The notes beneath the pieces are model-generated. The model was not told where the DNA came from. It made no database searches and saw only the letters and a program-made list of their open reading frames with translations. Made by a program: the position numbers and the translations under genes. DNA of 37,432 nucleotides from a virus. Lineage: Duplodnaviria; Heunggongvirae; Uroviricota; Caudoviricetes. The DNA lies in IMG/VR virus record IMGVR_UViG_2724679140_000013; one strand, 5' to 3'. Shown piece after piece: positions 1,003 through 34,827 of this stretch. Each line of letters starts with the position of its first letter. The stretch's first letter is position 1.

Positions 1003-1007
1003 TCTAA

Positions 1008-1394
1008 TTAAGACTTAATCCATCCCATCATCAACATCAGAGATACCGCCGTATTAGAAACAGACTGATTTTGATATACTTTTCTATTCTTTTTTTTATC
1101 TGCGAAAGGCTCAAAGGCCATATCAAGTTGTTTAGTCAATTCCTCTGCCAACAATTTGAGGTCATCCATATTTTTAACTTGTGTAGACAATTCTGGTGTA
1201 AGTCTTCCTTGATTATAAAGTACAGCTATAAAGTCAGCCGAGGTAGCCAATTTGTTTTTATAAGATGCCTTTTGCCACTCAAGGGCGTTTGCCTTATGTA
1301 ATGTTCCACCTTCATACCATTCAGAGGCATAACCATGAGATGCAAAAACAAACAAGATATAAAAAAGGACTAATTTTAAATAATTACGCTGCAT
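1008..1394 (-). CDS. Hypothetical secreted/periplasmic protein (128 aa), AT-rich moron
   Basis: N-terminal signal peptide LKLVLFYILFVFASHGYA; SD-like AAGGA 8 nt upstream of the ATG; stop lies 5 nt before the int start (coupled). Confidence 0.6.
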   Translation of the reverse strand: MQRNYLKLVLFYILFVFASHGYASEWYEGGTLHKANALEWQKASYKNKLATSADFIAVLYNQGRLTPELSTQVKNMDDLKLLAEELTKQLDMAFEPFADKKKNRKVYQNQSVSNTAVSLMLMMGWIKS

Positions 1395-1425
1395 ATCATA
1401 TTTCCTTGCATGTTATTTAACGTAT

Positions 1426-2073
1426 TTACACAAAATAAATTAAAAATGTAATCACCATACCCAAAATGAGTCCAACAATGAACACAATCAAAAATTCTTT
1501 AGTATATTCTGTTAATAGTTCACTAATGCAGTGTCTATTTTTAATATTGCCATTGCTCTGAGATATATTTTTATTAGTCTGCTGATCTAACCACGACAAT
1601 GCAGATTGCAACTGAGAACGAGTAAGATCGTTTAAACGGCCTGTACCGAAATTGATATGGCAATATCGAAGAAGTTTTTGTCTAATTTCATTACTTTCAC
1701 TGTTGCGAAGAAGGAGGCTTACAAGTAATTTACAGGCGTCATGATCCTTGTGTCGGTCAAGCATCGCATTGAGAAAGCTAATTGCGGTTGGATACTGATT
1801 CACCGTCATCTTATCGACACTATCAACACCGATTTCAGCATGAAGTTTACGCCAAACAACAAACGATTCTTCCTTGCTGGCATCAACAATCTTGTCAACC
1901 AACAACTTCAGTTGATGTCGCTGAGCCTTAACTAATGGGCGCTCATCAGGCCTACCAGAAGGGATTGCAATATTGACTGTATGCCGATCATCATATCGCT
2001 CTATCTGAATATTCTTTTCGTGGTAATCACGCCCAGCAACGCGATTGTCTGAACCGTTTGAGTTGACCGCCAT
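1426..2073 (-). CDS. Hypothetical tail-anchored membrane protein (215 aa), AT-rich moron
   Basis: Strong SD GGGAGGTG just upstream; single C-terminal TM FLIVFIVGLILGMVITFLIYFV; N-terminus carries RVAGRDYHE, which matches the repressor C-terminus. Confidence 0.65.
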   Translation of the reverse strand: MAVNSNGSDNRVAGRDYHEKNIQIERYDDRHTVNIAIPSGRPDERPLVKAQRHQLKLLVDKIVDASKEESFVVWRKLHAEIGVDSVDKMTVNQYPTAISFLNAMLDRHKDHDACKLLVSLLLRNSESNEIRQKLLRYCHINFGTGRLNDLTRSQLQSALSWLDQQTNKNISQSNGNIKNRHCISELLTEYTKEFLIVFIVGLILGMVITFLIYFV

Positions 2074-2091
2074 GTCACCTCCCTGCTAGAG

Positions 2092-2505
2092 CTAACCCTT
2101 AGTTTCGTTATAGTCACGACCAGCAATACGATGGCCCTTGCCAGAAGCTCTTATTGTACCTGGAGCCAAACTACCAGCGGTCAAGGCTGCCAAAGCCGCC
2201 GCCTTAACAGCCAAAGGTGCAGAGCGATATATTTTAATTAGCTCAATCTCATCTTCAGTGGCATTAGGGATGCCATGTGCACGACTACCAGAAAGTATGT
2301 AATAGACATCTACTCCGCAGCGCCTTCCCAAGAGATTCAGCATAGCTGCATCCGGTGTAGTCACCCCTCTTTCATACTTCCCCCAAGTCTTTGTAGAAAC
2401 TTCAAAAATAGACGCCATATCATCCTGAGTCATGCCAGTTTTCTCTCGTTCCTCCCGTAATCGACGTCCAATAATGACACTTAATTCCTCTTTTTCTGTT
2501 GACAT
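2092..2505 (-). CDS. XRE-family helix-turn-helix immunity repressor (CI/C analogue)
   Basis: 137 aa; HTH region GMTQDDMASIFEVSTKTWGKYERG; divergent from the early operon, position equivalent to P2 C / 186 cI. Confidence 0.8.
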   Translation of the reverse strand: MSTEKEELSVIIGRRLREEREKTGMTQDDMASIFEVSTKTWGKYERGVTTPDAAMLNLLGRRCGVDVYYILSGSRAHGIPNATEDEIELIKIYRSAPLAVKAAALAALTAGSLAPGTIRASGKGHRIAGRDYNETKG

Positions 2506-2564: not shown

Positions 2565-2771
2565 ATGAATCAAGTTAGTCACGACACCAAGTCACGCATT
2601 CCGCGTAATACCGCCACAGGTCCAAGACTGGCACTTAGGCTGTCCCTCGAGGAGCGAGCCATCATTGATGAAATGGCCGCCAAAGAACAACGCTCATCCT
2701 CTAACATGGCGCGCATGATCTTCCTTCGAGGCCTGGAGCTGACCCAGAAAGAACAAAACAAATCTTCCTGA
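2565..2771 (+). CDS. Ribbon-helix-helix DNA-binding protein, first early gene (Cro/Apl-like role inferred)
   Basis: 68 aa; RHH-like RLALRLSLEERAIIDEMAAKEQRSSSNMARMIFLRGLE; divergent from the repressor. Confidence 0.6.
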   Translation: MNQVSHDTKSRIPRNTATGPRLALRLSLEERAIIDEMAAKEQRSSSNMARMIFLRGLELTQKEQNKSS

Positions 2772-2787
2772 TCAGGAGGTTAGTGGG

Positions 2788-2991
2788 ATGTCAGGTATAA
2801 CCATCAATATCAATGTGAATGCCCCCTATGTATCCCTGCAGAAATATGCAGAGATAACAGGTATCCCTCTTAATACATGCAAAAAGATGTTGGCTGACGG
2901 TCGAATTATTATCCGACCAAAACGCGCCAAAATGGAAAAGCCAGAAGTAAACCTTGTGGCAATGCTGAAAGACGCTATCGCTAACAGTTAA
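2788..2991 (+). CDS. cox: Cox-like regulator/excisionase
   Basis: 67 aa; SD AGGAGG; pattern YVSLQKYAEITGIPLNTCKKMLADGRI resembles the P2 Cox HTH region; position after the switch. Confidence 0.55.
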   Translation: MSGITININVNAPYVSLQKYAEITGIPLNTCKKMLADGRIIIRPKRAKMEKPEVNLVAMLKDAIANS

Positions 2992-9830: not shown

Positions 9831-10790
9831 ATGAAAATTTGTATCGATGACGGCTCCACCAACATCAAGCTGGCATGGACTGAGAACGGCGAACGCCGCA
9901 ACGCCATCAGCCCGAACAGCTTCAAGTCGGAATGGTCTGCGCCGTTCGGTGGAACGCAGCCCGCAAACTACATGCTTGATGGCGTGCGCTATGGTTTTGA
10001 TCCGGTCAGCGATCGCTTTGTCCAGACGACCGACACGCAATACCAGTACAGCGATGTGAATGTCATTGCCATTCATCACGCGCTGGTCAAATCAGGCATC
10101 ACACCACAGGAAGTGGATGTGGTTGTCACCCTGCCACTGAGCGAATATTTCGACACCAACGCACAGCCGGACATGGCCAACATCAACCGCAAAAAAGCAA
10201 ACGTCATGCGCCCGGTGGCGTACCAGAACGGAAAAGCATTCACTATCCGTAACGTACGGGTTATGCCTGAATCCATTCCGGCTGGTTTTAAAGCACTGGC
10301 TGACATGAGTCCGTTTGAATCCCTGCTGATTGTGGATTTAGGCGGAACCACGCTGGATGTGGCAAAGGTTCAGGGACAACTGGCAGGTATCAGCCAGGTG
10401 TTTTGCGATCCACACGTAGGCGTTTCCCTGATGGCCGATGCCGTACTGTCGGTGATGGCCACTAACGGTATGCGTACCAGTCACCACATCGCCAATACCA
10501 TTATCGAACATCGCCATGATGAAGCCTGGCTGCGCCAGCACATCCACAATGACGCGCATTACGCCAGCCTGATGGCGGTTATTCGTGAAAAGGAAGAAAC
10601 ACTGAAACAACGCGTGATCCGCGCGCTGGCGGGTTTTTCGGGTTACGGGCGGGTGATGGTTGTCGGTGGAGGGGCGGAGATTGTGGCACCCGCTATCCGC
10701 GAAGCCTGCGGAGTTAATGCGACTTTCATCGCGGACGGGGTGCCACAGTTTGCTCTGGTTAACGGGCTGTACGCAATGGACAAGGAGTAA
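9831..10790 (+). CDS. parM: Actin-like plasmid segregation ATPase ParM/StbA
   Basis: 319 aa; collinear with plasmid R1 ParM as I recall it (MKICIDDGSTNIKLAW, ISPNSFKSEW, YQYSDVNVIAIHHAL, VMPESIPAG, LIVDLGGTTLDV, VMVVGGGAE). Confidence 0.9.
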   Translation: MKICIDDGSTNIKLAWTENGERRNAISPNSFKSEWSAPFGGTQPANYMLDGVRYGFDPVSDRFVQTTDTQYQYSDVNVIAIHHALVKSGITPQEVDVVVTLPLSEYFDTNAQPDMANINRKKANVMRPVAYQNGKAFTIRNVRVMPESIPAGFKALADMSPFESLLIVDLGGTTLDVAKVQGQLAGISQVFCDPHVGVSLMADAVLSVMATNGMRTSHHIANTIIEHRHDEAWLRQHIHNDAHYASLMAVIREKEETLKQRVIRALAGFSGYGRVMVVGGGAEIVAPAIREACGVNATFIADGVPQFALVNGLYAMDKE

Positions 10791-11467: not shown

Positions 11468-11785
11468 TTATGCAACCTGACAGGAATGTTCTGCCGTCGC
11501 AGTAACAACCCCACCGGAATACCCAAACTTAAAATCCCACCCCAGGATGTTTAGCATGATAAACAGTCGATCAATGGTATGATTATCTAACTTACCATTA
11601 ATGATTTCGCTTACTCTTGGTTGGGTTGTTTCCAGCAATTCAGCAGCTTCTCGCTGGGTAAGACCGCGCTCCTGAATCATTTTTCGGATAATAACCATTA
11701 ATTGGGCCCGGATGTGTTTATCACTAGCTTCATTTACAGAGCTACTTGATGACGCATAAGGGTTTTTGACTACGACGAATTCCAT
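11468..11785 (-). CDS. XRE-family HTH antitoxin (HigA-like)
   Basis: 105 aa; GLTQREAAELLETTQPRVSEIINGKLDNHTIDRLFIMLNILG is the typical HigA/XRE antitoxin pattern; downstream of the toxin. Confidence 0.8.
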   Translation of the reverse strand: MEFVVVKNPYASSSSSVNEASDKHIRAQLMVIIRKMIQERGLTQREAAELLETTQPRVSEIINGKLDNHTIDRLFIMLNILGWDFKFGYSGGVVTATAEHSCQVA

Positions 11786-11855
11786 AACTCTCCAGCCTTA
11801 ATCAGCGATGTTGCTGACATTGATTATGTTATATCAGATTTGAGATACCTGCAAG

Positions 11856-12257
11856 CTATCTTAAGCCATTTTTACGACGATACTCCACTAATTGTTTGTA
11901 TCTTGCGGCAGCTGTCTCATATTCTTTTTTTGACACACCATTTGTCTTTTTCTTAAATGTATGAAGTATGTAAACAGACTCCGCAAATTTCGCAACGTAA
12001 ATCATACGATAAGAATCACTACTCTTGATGGTTAATTGCATTGCGTAGCGACCAATCGTTTCCCGCATTGATTTTTTTTGAGCAGGTGGAACCCCCAAGG
12101 CATCATCACCATCCACTGGAAAATCGAAACTGTCGAAAGAATGAGGACAATCGCTCTGCAGTGCAACAAGCTCAAAATTTATCCTTTCTCGAACAGCTTC
12201 AGGATAACTATCAATTTGTTTCTGAATTTTATCATTCCAATATGTGATGTCTTTCAC
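11856..12257 (-). CDS. Gp49/RelE-HigB-superfamily toxin
   Basis: 133 aa, GTG start with SD GAGAGG; YRMIYVAKFAESVYILHTFKKKTNGVSKKEYETAAARYKQL matches the Gp49-like RelE/ParE toxin C-terminal pattern; toxin-first order as in higBA. Confidence 0.7.
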   Translation of the reverse strand: MKDITYWNDKIQKQIDSYPEAVRERINFELVALQSDCPHSFDSFDFPVDGDDALGVPPAQKKSMRETIGRYAMQLTIKSSDSYRMIYVAKFAESVYILHTFKKKTNGVSKKEYETAAARYKQLVEYRRKNGLR

Positions 12258-32322: not shown

Positions 32323-32479
32323 AGCTTCAGCCCCTTGTATCCGTTAAATGATTAGGCAACAATCATCACCCACCACGCGCGTAATCTCACCCCTGCGCCA
32401 TTCTCCCGCCACGGCGACAACAAAAAGCAGTAACCCCCTCCGCACGCACATGCGACCATGCCGCACAGGGAGGGAACAG

Positions 32480-33589
32480 ATGACCGACACCACCATGCAA
32501 TTGCTCAGTCAGGGCACAGACCCTGTAAAAATGCCGGATTTTGATATTCTCGCGGAGGGTAAAACGCTGTCAGGCGTGGCAGAGCGCCTGATGAGCCTGT
32601 CACTGACCGACAACCGTGGATTTGAGGCGGACCAGCTCACCATCACGCTGGATGATGCGGATGGTCAGTTGCAGCTACCGCCACGGGGCGCGCGCCTGAC
32701 GGTTCTCATTGGCTGGAAAGGAGAACCGCTGACAGAAAAAGGCACTTACATTGTTGATGAAATCGCTCACGAAGGACCGCCGGACAGGCTGACTGTTTCA
32801 GCCAGAAGCGCAGATTTTCGGGATGAATTTAACGTTAAACGTGAGGTGTCCTGGCATGATGTGACCGTTGAGCGTGTGGTATCCGCCATCGCTCATCGGT
32901 ACGGTCTGAAACCACAAATCAGCGAAATACTGATGGATATTGAAATCGACCACGCCGACCAGACCGAAGAAAGCGACATGTCCTTCCTTACGCGCATGGC
33001 GGAAATGCTGGGCGCAATCACCACGGTAAAAAGCGGTAATCTGTTATTCATCATGCCTGGCGGTGGCGTGAACGCACAGGGCCAGCCGTTGCCCTCATTC
33101 GCCATCACACGCAGCAGTGGCGATCGCCATCAGTTCCGCATTGCTGACCGCGAAGCGTATACGGGGGTACGCGCTTACTGGCTTGATCTTAATTACGGGA
33201 AAAAGAAAAAAGTCAGCGTGAAACGCCGCAAACCGCCAAAACCCAAAAAGGAGAAAAGCAGCAGCCGTGAAGGTGATTATATGGAAGGCGCGGAAGGCAA
33301 TGTGTTTGTGTTACGCAAGACTTATCAGAACGAGCAGGCAGCAAGACGCGCAGCGGCGGCGAAGTGGCAGCAGCTACAACGCGGAGCCGCATCATTCTCC
33401 ATCACGCTGGCACGTGGACGAGCAGAACTCTACCCCGAAATGCATGGCACGGTAACAGGATTTAAAAGCGAGATTGATAATCAGGACTGGATTATTGCAA
33501 AAGCCGAGCACACCATTGATAACAGTGGTTTTACCACACAGCTTGAGCTTGAAGCAAAAATCCCGGAATGGATAGCAGAAACAGAGTGA
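32480..33589 (+). CDS. D: Late control/tail protein D (P2 gpD family)
   Basis: Start at MTDTTMQ (SD GGGAGGGA) preferred to the 32348 ORF start; size and position before ogr. Confidence 0.85.
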   Translation: MTDTTMQLLSQGTDPVKMPDFDILAEGKTLSGVAERLMSLSLTDNRGFEADQLTITLDDADGQLQLPPRGARLTVLIGWKGEPLTEKGTYIVDEIAHEGPPDRLTVSARSADFRDEFNVKREVSWHDVTVERVVSAIAHRYGLKPQISEILMDIEIDHADQTEESDMSFLTRMAEMLGAITTVKSGNLLFIMPGGGVNAQGQPLPSFAITRSSGDRHQFRIADREAYTGVRAYWLDLNYGKKKKVSVKRRKPPKPKKEKSSSREGDYMEGAEGNVFVLRKTYQNEQAARRAAAAKWQQLQRGAASFSITLARGRAELYPEMHGTVTGFKSEIDNQDWIIAKAEHTIDNSGFTTQLELEAKIPEWIAETE

Positions 33590-33715
33590 ACAACCTCGAC
33601 GTTTTACTTAATATACAATAGCCTTCTGGACACGGTAAGGCAAGAACAAGGGTAAAAGATCCTTTACTGTCAGAGTTACAGGTTATACCTGTAAGCAAAA
33701 ACAAAGGCATATATT

Positions 33716-34474
33716 ATGTTCAGTTTATTTTCGTTAACTGCCGGAGCAAATGTGCGCTGGCATGATTTACCTGGTAAAGGTATTCCTGTTGTTTTTATTC
33801 ATGGGCTTGGCTGTTCCTCTTCTTATGAATATCCACGGGTTGTTGCAGATCCTGCATTTGGTGGACAACGAGCGATATTGATAGATCTCCCTGGATATGG
33901 ATTCAGTGATAAGCCTAAAGGATTCGATTACAGCATATCCCATCAAGCTAAAGTTGTTATTGAAGTAGTAGAAACCTTAAATCTCTCACAGTTCCATATT
34001 TATGGTCACAGTATGGGGGGAAGTATTGCGATTGAAGTGGCCAGACAACTACATGAGAGAACAAGAAAGCTTGTGGTTTCTGAGCCTAATTTTCACTCTG
34101 GTGGAGGTACCTATAGCCGTAAGATAATAGAGAAACCAGAAGCAGAGTTTATTTCGCATATATATAATGAATTACTGGAGTGTGAAACATCCCCATGGAA
34201 AGGTGAACTCCAGAATGCAGCCCCATGGGCAATATGGCGAGGAGCCAAAAGTCTGGTTGATGGAACCACTCCATCATGGAGAGATATATTCCTTAATCTG
34301 CCCTGTTCACGTACACTAATTTTTGGCGAACAATCATTGCCAGACAATGATTTCCAGCAAATAAAAGAATCTGGAATATCTGTTGCAATAGTGCCAAACG
34401 CTGGACACTCCATGTCATGGGAAAATCCATCAGCACTGGCCTCAATTTTACATACAGAATTTTATAGAAAGTAA
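33716..34474 (+). CDS. Alpha/beta-fold hydrolase (serine hydrolase), AT-rich moron
   Basis: 252 aa; oxyanion FIHGLG, nucleophile elbow GHSMGG, C-terminal catalytic His in NAGHSM. Confidence 0.8.
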   Translation: MFSLFSLTAGANVRWHDLPGKGIPVVFIHGLGCSSSYEYPRVVADPAFGGQRAILIDLPGYGFSDKPKGFDYSISHQAKVVIEVVETLNLSQFHIYGHSMGGSIAIEVARQLHERTRKLVVSEPNFHSGGGTYSRKIIEKPEAEFISHIYNELLECETSPWKGELQNAAPWAIWRGAKSLVDGTTPSWRDIFLNLPCSRTLIFGEQSLPDNDFQQIKESGISVAIVPNAGHSMSWENPSALASILHTEFYRK

Positions 34475-34518
34475 AATAACCTATACATAGATATTGTTTC
34501 CACCAACATCATATTATC

Positions 34519-34553
34519 AAAGAGCAGGGCAAATTTACCTCCTGCTCTTTTAC
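34519..34553 (+). terminator. Intrinsic terminator after the hydrolase gene
   Basis: AAAGAGCAGG-N12-CCTGCTCTTT followed by TAC. Confidence 0.5.
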
Positions 34554-34827
34554 TCAAATTAGATGATTTTATAGCACACATTTTATGAAATATTTAAAAT
34601 CTATAAACTTATAAGAACATTTTTTATCAAAACACATACATAATGAACAATCTCTTTTATCATAATTAGTAAATTATCACTTGATAATAAATGACATACT
34701 AAATATGCATCAGGGTTAATTTTTATTAATAGATAAACGTCCATGCCTCAATCTGACCTGATTGTTGATTGGCATATTCACTAGTACAATTTAAAATCAC
34801 GATAGCAGCACATTAAGGGAGGTCGCT

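Follow-up and report, generated by a model that had tools for sequence, protein, structure and literature searches.

We analysed the lysogeny operon in a 37,432-nucleotide (nt) stretch of Caudoviricetes DNA (IMG/VR record IMGVR_UViG_2724679140_000013; hereafter the window). On the minus strand, the operon runs from a helix-turn-helix (HTH) repressor gene through two genes, here called gene 1 (215 residues) and gene 2 (128 residues), to the integrase gene (int), with intergenic gaps of 18, 31 and 5 nt. The results below center on gene 1, whose product begins with the same short motif with which the repressor ends. The features of the operon are as follows.

2505-2092, minus strand: HTH repressor (immunity repressor), 137 residues; HTH_31/HTH_3 (Pfam HTH_31, E 2.5e-10).
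2104-2154, minus strand: repressor tail motif IRASGKGHRIAGRDYNE, residues 118-134, followed by TKG and the stop codon; matches the head of gene 1.
2078-2083, minus strand: Shine-Dalgarno site GGGAGG, 4 nt upstream of the gene 1 ATG, as seen in the sequence itself.
2073-1426, minus strand: gene 1, 215 residues, predicted tail-anchored Flk_N protein; phrog_5825 (E 6.8e-86 over residues 1-208), with conserved synteny in 118 loci.
2017-2067, minus strand: gene 1 head motif VNSNGSDNRVAGRDYHE, residues 3-19; conserved in the family, modeled with low confidence by AlphaFold2 (AF2), and co-varying with the tail.
1579-1944, minus strand: Flk_N helical domain, residues 44-165; two helical units of ~60 residues (1762-1944 and 1579-1761).
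1429-1578, minus strand: variable linker (residues 166-191) and C-terminal transmembrane (TM) anchor (residues 192-215); G+C 0.26, with an invariant GxxxG.
1394-1008, minus strand: gene 2, 128 residues, predicted secreted all-helical protein; exchangeable cargo.
1002-1, minus strand: tyrosine integrase, 333 residues, last gene of the operon (Pfam Int_N, E 4e-32; Phage_integrase, E 3e-22).

An initial annotation of this DNA had described the open reading frames (ORFs), the three gaps, the strong Shine-Dalgarno site of gene 1, its tail anchor and the signal peptide of gene 2, all of which agreed with our reading of the sequence; the ORF of gene 2 is preceded by AAGGAAA. Its statement that the repressor is directly followed by int in P2 and 186 held for P2, in which int follows gene C after 115 nt. 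Arc-like and Cox-like early genes are transcribed divergently from the repressor gene, as in a P2-like switch. These opposite genes (2565-2991, plus strand) encode an Arc-like ribbon-helix-helix protein (68 residues) and a Cox-like excisionase/repressor (67 residues) in tandem, whereas P2 has Cox alone. A consensus scan detected no terminator in either intergenic gap, and the single minus-strand terminator-like hairpin (1240-1223) lies within gene 2 (2 sites, compared with 2.4 expected from shuffles).

The XRE-type HTH of the repressor lies at the N-terminus and the tail at the C-terminus; the protein also contains an Ala-rich helix that is conserved (APLAVKAAALAALTAG). It ends in ...IRASGKGHRIAGRDYNETKG, and gene 1 starts with MAVNSNGSDNRVAGRDYHEKNIQ, with ~17-20 residues common to the repressor tail and the gene 1 head. 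For the pair in the window, the ungapped BLOSUM62 score of tail against head was 53, compared with 18 ± 4 for shuffled heads. The match was found in every enterobacterial locus (for example, SINISGQGNRVAGRDFNENK against TVNSTGEQNRVAGRDFNENK), and nine divergent cognate pairs scored 27-79, compared with 17-22 (standard deviation ~4) for shuffled heads. Lineage-specific variants of the motif occurred in both proteins, including NR.AGRD[FY], ...NYYE (locus L036), Q.FN..I..G.FA.RDIVN (L029) and Q.FHG.VGQ..AG (L028, L030), with others in L032 and L034. Permutation of the partners among the divergent pairs gave p ~2e-5, a figure inflated by shared ancestry. Among 550 identical residues in 53 distinct pairs, the same codon was used in only 41%, with a nucleotide identity of 59%; gene conversion was therefore rejected as the origin of the likeness, which is held at the protein level. 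Furthermore, the back-translated motif occurred in frame 109 times in IMG/VR, at 65 ORF C-termini and 44 ORF N-termini and never internally, and the head ranks among the best-conserved parts of the phage Flk_N family.

We then compared the position of gene 1 across related loci from genomes, IMG/VR and Logan assemblies. The Flk_N gene directly followed an HTH repressor gene in 118 of 118 loci examined, which include P2-like prophages of at least 10 enterobacterial genera as well as Mu-like phages lacking an integrase. The same repressor family preceded every Flk_N gene, with a gap of 9-18 nt in nearly all loci; in a small number of distant loci the gap was wider, up to ~70 nt. The order repressor, gene 1 homologue, variable gene, int was constant in 9 further genera, in Klebsiella, in other E. 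coli and in 80 IMG/VR contigs; in E. coli O26:H11, for instance, the operon beside yecA consists of the repressor, a 216-residue "membrane protein", a DUF2511 protein and int. The initial annotation had taken genes 1 and 2 together as an insertion between repressor and int, and as candidate cargo, and had named conservation as a core gene as one finding that would speak against this. Gene 1 is not an insertion but a conserved core gene in this phage lineage; the insertion view holds for gene 2, which occupies a variable, co-oriented, AT-rich slot. In the phage collection, the sole enterobacterial record with gene 1 is Escherichia phage 520873 (L001, 2040-3080), where the gene is in fragments and int is also split; the record resembles a decaying prophage.

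Gene 1 belongs to Flk_N, a family that has a name but whose mechanism is obscure. Precomputed annotations assign Pfam PF27202 (Flk_N) to a protein identical to gene 1 (P0001) and to all 120 listed homologues. Neither this kinship with Flk nor the tail-head motif appears in the initial annotation. Against the NCBIfam Flk model (NF007987), residues 41-172 aligned to profile positions 25-155 of 339 (E 1.5e-14, 54.1 bits), far below the equivalog cut-off of 353 bits, and the identity to E. coli K-12 Flk was 28% over 131 residues (E 7e-11); the first unit of gene 1 gave a second match, to a later unit of E. coli Flk. Gene 1 is a paralogous member of the family and not Flk itself. With 137 clusters at 50% identity among 1.84 billion representatives, the superfamily is a small one; it splits into phage-type proteins of ~190-225 residues with the N-terminal head motif and Flk-type proteins of ~330-430 residues without it. 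The family is abundant in Klebsiella pneumoniae, with one member (P0027) indexed in 1158 blocks of the collection, and is also present in insect symbionts.

From its N-terminus, gene 1 consists of the head motif, a low-confidence beta-hairpin, the two Flk_N units, the variable linker and the GxxxG TM helix. In its AF2 monomer (mean predicted local distance difference test score, pLDDT, 73), residues 1-23 scored below 50 and a hairpin at 22-36 was modeled with low confidence; the helical region at 49-174 was mostly confident, residues 172-182 fell below pLDDT 50, and the TM helix came last. The sole hydrophobic helix stands at the extreme C-terminus (residues 192-215; AF2 helix 178-214) and, by homology with Flk, gene 1 would be a tail-anchored inner-membrane protein with its whole body in the cytoplasm. 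The GxxxG (G201, G205; nt 1459-1473) is invariant in phage-type anchors, is without counterpart in E. coli Flk, and suggests helix-helix association. The initial annotation had also pointed to an internal repeat in the 215-residue protein. BLASTP between the two halves returned no match, whereas profile-profile comparison aligned them in precisely the register given in that annotation (P = 3e-4, diverse alignment), which lends the repeat weak support. Foldseek against viral structures gave weak matches only (ORF6C, Bro-N, RecT C-terminus), none at E <= 0.001.

The relationship to Flk raises the question of whether gene 1 acts as a mimic of it in the lysogen, binding the C-terminal domain of the flagellar type III export gate protein FlhA (FlhA-C) and altering flagellar assembly or FlgM secretion. 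Flk (Fluke/RflH; Pfam Flk_N, NCBIfam PRK10715) of Salmonella and E. coli has a cytoplasmic body on a single C-terminal membrane anchor, restrains the switch from early to late flagellar secretion, and interacts with FlhA-C in two-hybrid assays (PMC13344023); gene 1 has the same tail-anchored topology and homology to it over the two helical units. We nonetheless consider mimicry very unlikely. The identity is low and the model score lies far from the cut-off; Klebsiella pneumoniae, in which the family is abundant, is classically non-flagellate, and insect symbionts carry it too. Flk (331-333 residues, three or more units) has a Pro/Gln-rich N-terminus that the shorter, two-unit gene 1 lacks, and has neither the head motif nor the GxxxG anchor. 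Gene 1 is phage-borne and always beside the repressor, whereas flk lies between pdxB and yfcJ. The Flk_N body is replaced by unrelated domains in other phages, while the head and the linkage to the repressor are kept.

These replacements emerged from 15 motif-scan loci in which no Flk_N domain was detected; at least 8 of them were examined closely. In the 8 detailed loci, the repressor gene was followed by genes for head-bearing membrane proteins of other kinds, either the head with a zinc ribbon and 1-3 TM helices (117-143 residues) or the head with another segment and TM helices (187 residues). These partners gave no family assignment past the head, and tblastn of the zinc-ribbon partner against cultured phages gave no match. 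The tail/head pair is carried by two cultured transposable Pseudomonas phages. In B3 it consists of ORF18, described as "similar to P22 c2 repressor", and ORF20 (L223, 2486-3489); in Ps59 it consists of gp17 and gp18 (L224, 1082-2097). In these phages GISVTGDGNRTAGRDFHERKE stands against VNIEVTGSNNIVAGRDFIENHL, and the partner has a non-Flk_N middle and two TM helices. The invariant unit is thus a tailed HTH repressor followed by a membrane protein with the matching head, and the middle domain is exchangeable. Chromosomal Flk, without the head, looks from its sequence like a head-less relative of the phage repressor partner.

A further possibility is that the tail-head similarity is a functionless relic of an old gene fission or of a duplication at the junction, with the role of gene 1 lying elsewhere. 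One natural fusion exists: P0288 (L225, 2531-3250), encoded divergently from Rep_1 and gene-V-like genes on an inovirus-like contig, has a GVNIAGSNSGNINI segment between an XRE HTH and a Flk_N domain and lacks a TM helix. In the window, the repressor and gene 1 ORFs share a reading frame, 18 nt apart, separated by TAG CTC TAG and 12 nt (2071-2094). This frame relation is not conserved in other genera, however, and relic copies would be expected to decay separately, yet the copies are alike within lineages and differ between them without shared codons, and the head is one of the most strongly conserved segments of the family. We regard a relic as extremely unlikely. Read-through or frameshift production of a fused repressor-gene 1 protein was likewise rejected: two TAG codons intervene, and the variation of the frame relation between genera makes programmed read-through unlikely.

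Taken together, we propose that gene 1 binds the repressor tail and controls the pool of free repressor at the inner membrane, a reading to which we assign roughly an even chance. Head and tail would bind each other through homotypic beta-strand pairing, and part of the repressor pool would be held at, or handed over to, the inner membrane by gene 1. The exchangeable middle domain (Flk_N, zinc ribbon or other) would serve as the input and the head-tail contact as the conserved output, so that the pair would itself regulate how much repressor is free. It would be a device for induction or for setting an immunity threshold, and could be likened to a membrane-anchored anti-sigma factor or to Mlc-PtsG sequestration. 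Several observations fit this proposal. Tight linkage to the repressor is seen in both of two unrelated phage types (P2-like and Mu-like), the membrane-spanning part is poorly conserved, and the low AF2 confidence of the head is consistent with a segment that folds upon binding. A simple scan of the window detected no SOS box before any gene, which also fits and leaves no Tum-like induction route evident; the sole CTGT-N8-ACAG match lies inside a replication gene and is at chance level, and SOS control was rejected.

The present pair resembles systems that sequester a regulator, both at the membrane (extracytoplasmic function, ECF, sigma factors with their membrane anti-sigma factors; Mlc-PtsG) and by phage antirepressors (Qtip of VP882, Ant, Tum), in that a regulator gene is followed by a co-transcribed gene for a single-pass, N-in membrane protein. 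The outcome proposed here, control of the free regulator pool, would be shared as well. Gene 1 has no homology to any of these; the coupling would run through a shared terminal motif and not a dedicated binding domain, and gene 1 is made together with the repressor and not from an inducible promoter.

Other points weigh against the proposal. Constitutive co-expression with the repressor makes simple sequestration awkward, and a regulated step must be postulated because a lysogen needs free repressor. The co-variation of tail and head could also reflect a co-evolving third partner bound by both motifs. The lineages share ancestry, so the permutation value overstates their independence, and in one distant locus (L035) the tail motif is missing from the repressor. 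Structurally, the Flk_N units match small bundles of helices, which have no diagnostic value. Finally, the fusion P0288 is a singleton in 5.8 billion clusters, which makes the Rosetta-stone argument from it weak.

The arrangement of the motif also resembles that of amyloid-signaling pairs (HET-S/NWD2 of fungi; bacterial BASS pairs; Bab/Agp of E. coli with BASS11). There too, two neighboring genes encode products that share a motif of ~20 residues, placed at the C-terminus of the first protein and the N-terminus of the second; the motif is found on domains of several types, and E. coli prophages are a known setting (bioRxiv 10.1101/2024.11.07.622273). The same short motif at the C-terminus and N-terminus of adjacent products, by which BASS/FASS pairs are recognized, was found here; the Bell/HeLo-like effector with an NLR/STAND or TPR sensor, which also characterizes such pairs, was not. 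The present pair instead joins a DNA-binding XRE-HTH repressor to a Flk_N, zinc-ribbon or other membrane protein, through a motif that differs in sequence and is highly charged. By analogy, tail and head could form a self-templating amyloid-like or beta-zipper relay, in which a membrane sensor with an interchangeable input domain (Flk_N, zinc ribbon or other) captures or converts the repressor through the C-terminal motif of the latter and thereby flips the lysis-lysogeny switch. We consider this version quite unlikely. If true, it would extend amyloid-type signaling from cell-death systems (HET-S/NWD2, Bab/Agp) to phage repressor control, with a cassette common to P2-like and Mu-like phages, including Pseudomonas phage B3.

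The same gene-pair logic, shared with Bab/Agp of E. coli prophage hotspots (bioRxiv 10.1101/2024.11.07.622273), would also suit a membrane effector gated by the repressor: gene 1 would be a dormant toxin or an executor of abortive infection that the head-tail contact keeps off or turns on, perhaps through amyloid-like templating of the Bab/Agp kind, and loss or conversion of the repressor at superinfection or induction would lead to membrane damage. An XRE-HTH gene followed by a small membrane protein gene resembles type II toxin-antitoxin operons, the repressor weakly matches the MqsA and HipB antitoxin HTH models, the GxxxG TM helix could oligomerize, and the position is the classic one of lambda rexAB. 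However, the membrane-spanning part is the least conserved part of the protein (a single tail anchor in gene 1, 2-3 TM helices in other cases, and a linker/TM region that recombines freely), which is unexpected for an effector moiety. No Bell/HeLo-like or holin-like domain was present, and with a charged-residue-rich motif of just ~17-20 residues, amyloid formation is hypothetical. In a test for a type II toxin-antitoxin system, Pfam, NCBIfam and PHROGs revealed no toxin family downstream of the HTH gene, which holds the immunity-repressor position opposite the Arc-like and Cox-like genes. The PADLOC check that the initial annotation had proposed found no defense model matched by gene 1 or gene 2 (PADLOC-DB 2.0; 0 families for either protein at E <= 1), and no defense, toxin or exclusion family was found for either in Pfam or NCBIfam. 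On this evidence, we judge a repressor-gated effector unlikely.

We next examined base composition. The initial annotation had noted that 1003-2091 is AT-rich, and its G+C of 0.376 indeed lies well below the mean of 0.516 for equal-size windows (standard deviation 0.057), among the 9 lowest of 727. The low-G+C part is, however, confined to 1008-1579, with 0.351 for gene 2 and 0.26 for the final 154 nt of gene 1, whereas the first 494 nt of gene 1 (0.431) are close to the repressor (0.461) and int (0.452). The composition break within gene 1, from 0.43 to 0.26 at nt 1579/1580 just past LSWLDQQ, is also a homology break: a relative (L043) is 91% identical to gene 1 over residues 1-163 but only 27% identical over the final 52 residues. 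Because the two breaks coincide inside gene 1, the horizontally exchanged AT-rich mosaic block is 1008-1579, comprising gene 2 and the linker/TM end of gene 1. Horizontal acquisition, proposed in the initial annotation for the whole segment, accordingly stands for this block and not for the rest of gene 1. The exact two-gene module was present in 3 of 5426 complete E. coli genomes, all three from mouse isolates; the first ~510 nt of gene 1 matched 515 of the 5426 at about 79% identity.

Gene 2 starts with a Sec-type signal peptide, MQRNYLKLVLFYILFVFASHGYA|SE (residues 1-23; nt 1326-1394), and AF2 gave a confident all-helical domain (pLDDT 90). Its family is small (37 matches) and carries the strongly conserved signature EWYEGGTLHKA...NKLATSADF directly after an N-terminal export or anchor segment, which may be a signal peptide or a lipobox and in some members is an anchor made of a zinc ribbon and a TM helix. 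The family always occupied the same operon slot, once behind a Flk_N gene 57% identical to gene 1. HdeA/HdeB, YmgD and Tai4/Rap1a are likewise secreted all-helical bundles of ~100 residues; the fold resemblance of gene 2 to HdeA/YmgD/Tai4 is weak, and its signature is its own. We read gene 2 as a lysogen-expressed periplasmic helical protein, chaperone-like or immunity-like, with protection of the envelope or periplasm as its most likely putative role.

A comparison of the int-repressor junction across P2-like prophages, as had been suggested with the initial annotation, revealed variable cargo between gene 1 and int. Genes from at least 8 protein families with no relation to one another occupied the slot (322-1874 nt; G+C 0.32-0.42), each on the operon strand; their products include DUF2511, acidic DUF8087-type and BRCT+WYL-like proteins. 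In Enterobacter, Klebsiella and Kosakonia relatives (L008, 5635-6510; L014, 4647-5510; L009, 5663-6535), the slot proteins were 288-292 residues long and all three were faintly similar to the PADLOC candidate PDC-S48; in L008 and L014 they combine a BRCT domain at the N-terminus with a region that is weakly WYL-like. These slot proteins are possibly a DNA-damage-sensing accessory on the lysogenic transcript. Unrelated genes of deviant composition at the same position mark a moron hotspot, a description that fits gene 2 but not gene 1. Gene 2 is therefore independent, true cargo, and the slot is an ordinary moron hotspot in a new place. To our knowledge, the slot between repressor partner and int is not among the known P2 hotspots, and it is worth mining for cargo.

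These results bear on the reading of the initial annotation, in which genes 1 and 2 would be stand-alone exclusion or defense cargo on the lysogenic transcript, without a link to the repressor. The position is that of genes expressed in the lysogen, with small gaps and no intergenic terminator-like site; both products target the envelope; and the slot that follows gene 1 is clearly a hotspot for cargo. Lambda rexAB and sieB, P2 old, tin and fun, and the P2/P4 defense hotspots share the position on a lysogenic transcript, and for gene 2 the likeness extends to the slot, which is variable, AT-rich, on the operon strand and home to many unrelated genes; gene 1 and gene 2 have no sequence relation to these accessory genes. 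Exclusion in beetrevirus Fc02 comes from genes on the lysogenic repressor transcript, but these are different genes and lie upstream of the repressor (PMC9936078). The Fc02 repressor is of another type, and we rejected the Fc02 RNA-seq as direct evidence, retaining it as an analogy only. Against the stand-alone reading, conservation of gene 1 together with the repressor extends over P2-like and Mu-like phages, the two proteins have a co-varying motif in common, no PADLOC model was matched, and an almost wholly cytoplasmic protein is poorly designed to act against DNA entering from outside. For the two genes jointly, we consider this reading decidedly unlikely: stand-alone cargo is plausible for gene 2 and unlikely for gene 1, for which an exclusion or abortive-infection role is less likely than a role tied to the repressor. 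The interpretation in the initial annotation is, overall, partly supported.

We found no description of such a repressor-partner pair in the searchable literature; as far as that literature shows, coupling of a repressor to a partner through co-varying terminal motifs is new, and it combines two known kinds of control, paired-motif signaling and membrane control of a transcription factor. The prophage lineage occurs in about one in ten complete E. coli genomes and in very many Klebsiella genomes, and a repressor wired to a membrane protein by a co-varying end motif would represent a new input into the lysis-lysogeny decision. The pair is directly testable, including in the cultured phages B3 and Ps59, and the finding gives context to the poorly understood Flk_N domain.

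Several other features of the window were recorded. The early region contains a ParM-like actin gene (9831-10790, plus strand; StbA_N and ParM C-terminal domain, E 7e-82), and E. coli O26:H11 carries the same gene after its replication gene. At 11468-12257 (minus strand), a Gp49/HigB-like ORF (133 residues) is followed by an HTH_37/HigA-like ORF (105 residues), likely a toxin-antitoxin pair in the prophage. The other lowest-G+C patch of the window (0.365) spans 33600-34700, where an ORF (33716-34474, plus strand) right after gpD (32348-33589) encodes an alpha/beta-hydrolase-fold protein, which could be more cargo or host DNA past the prophage end.

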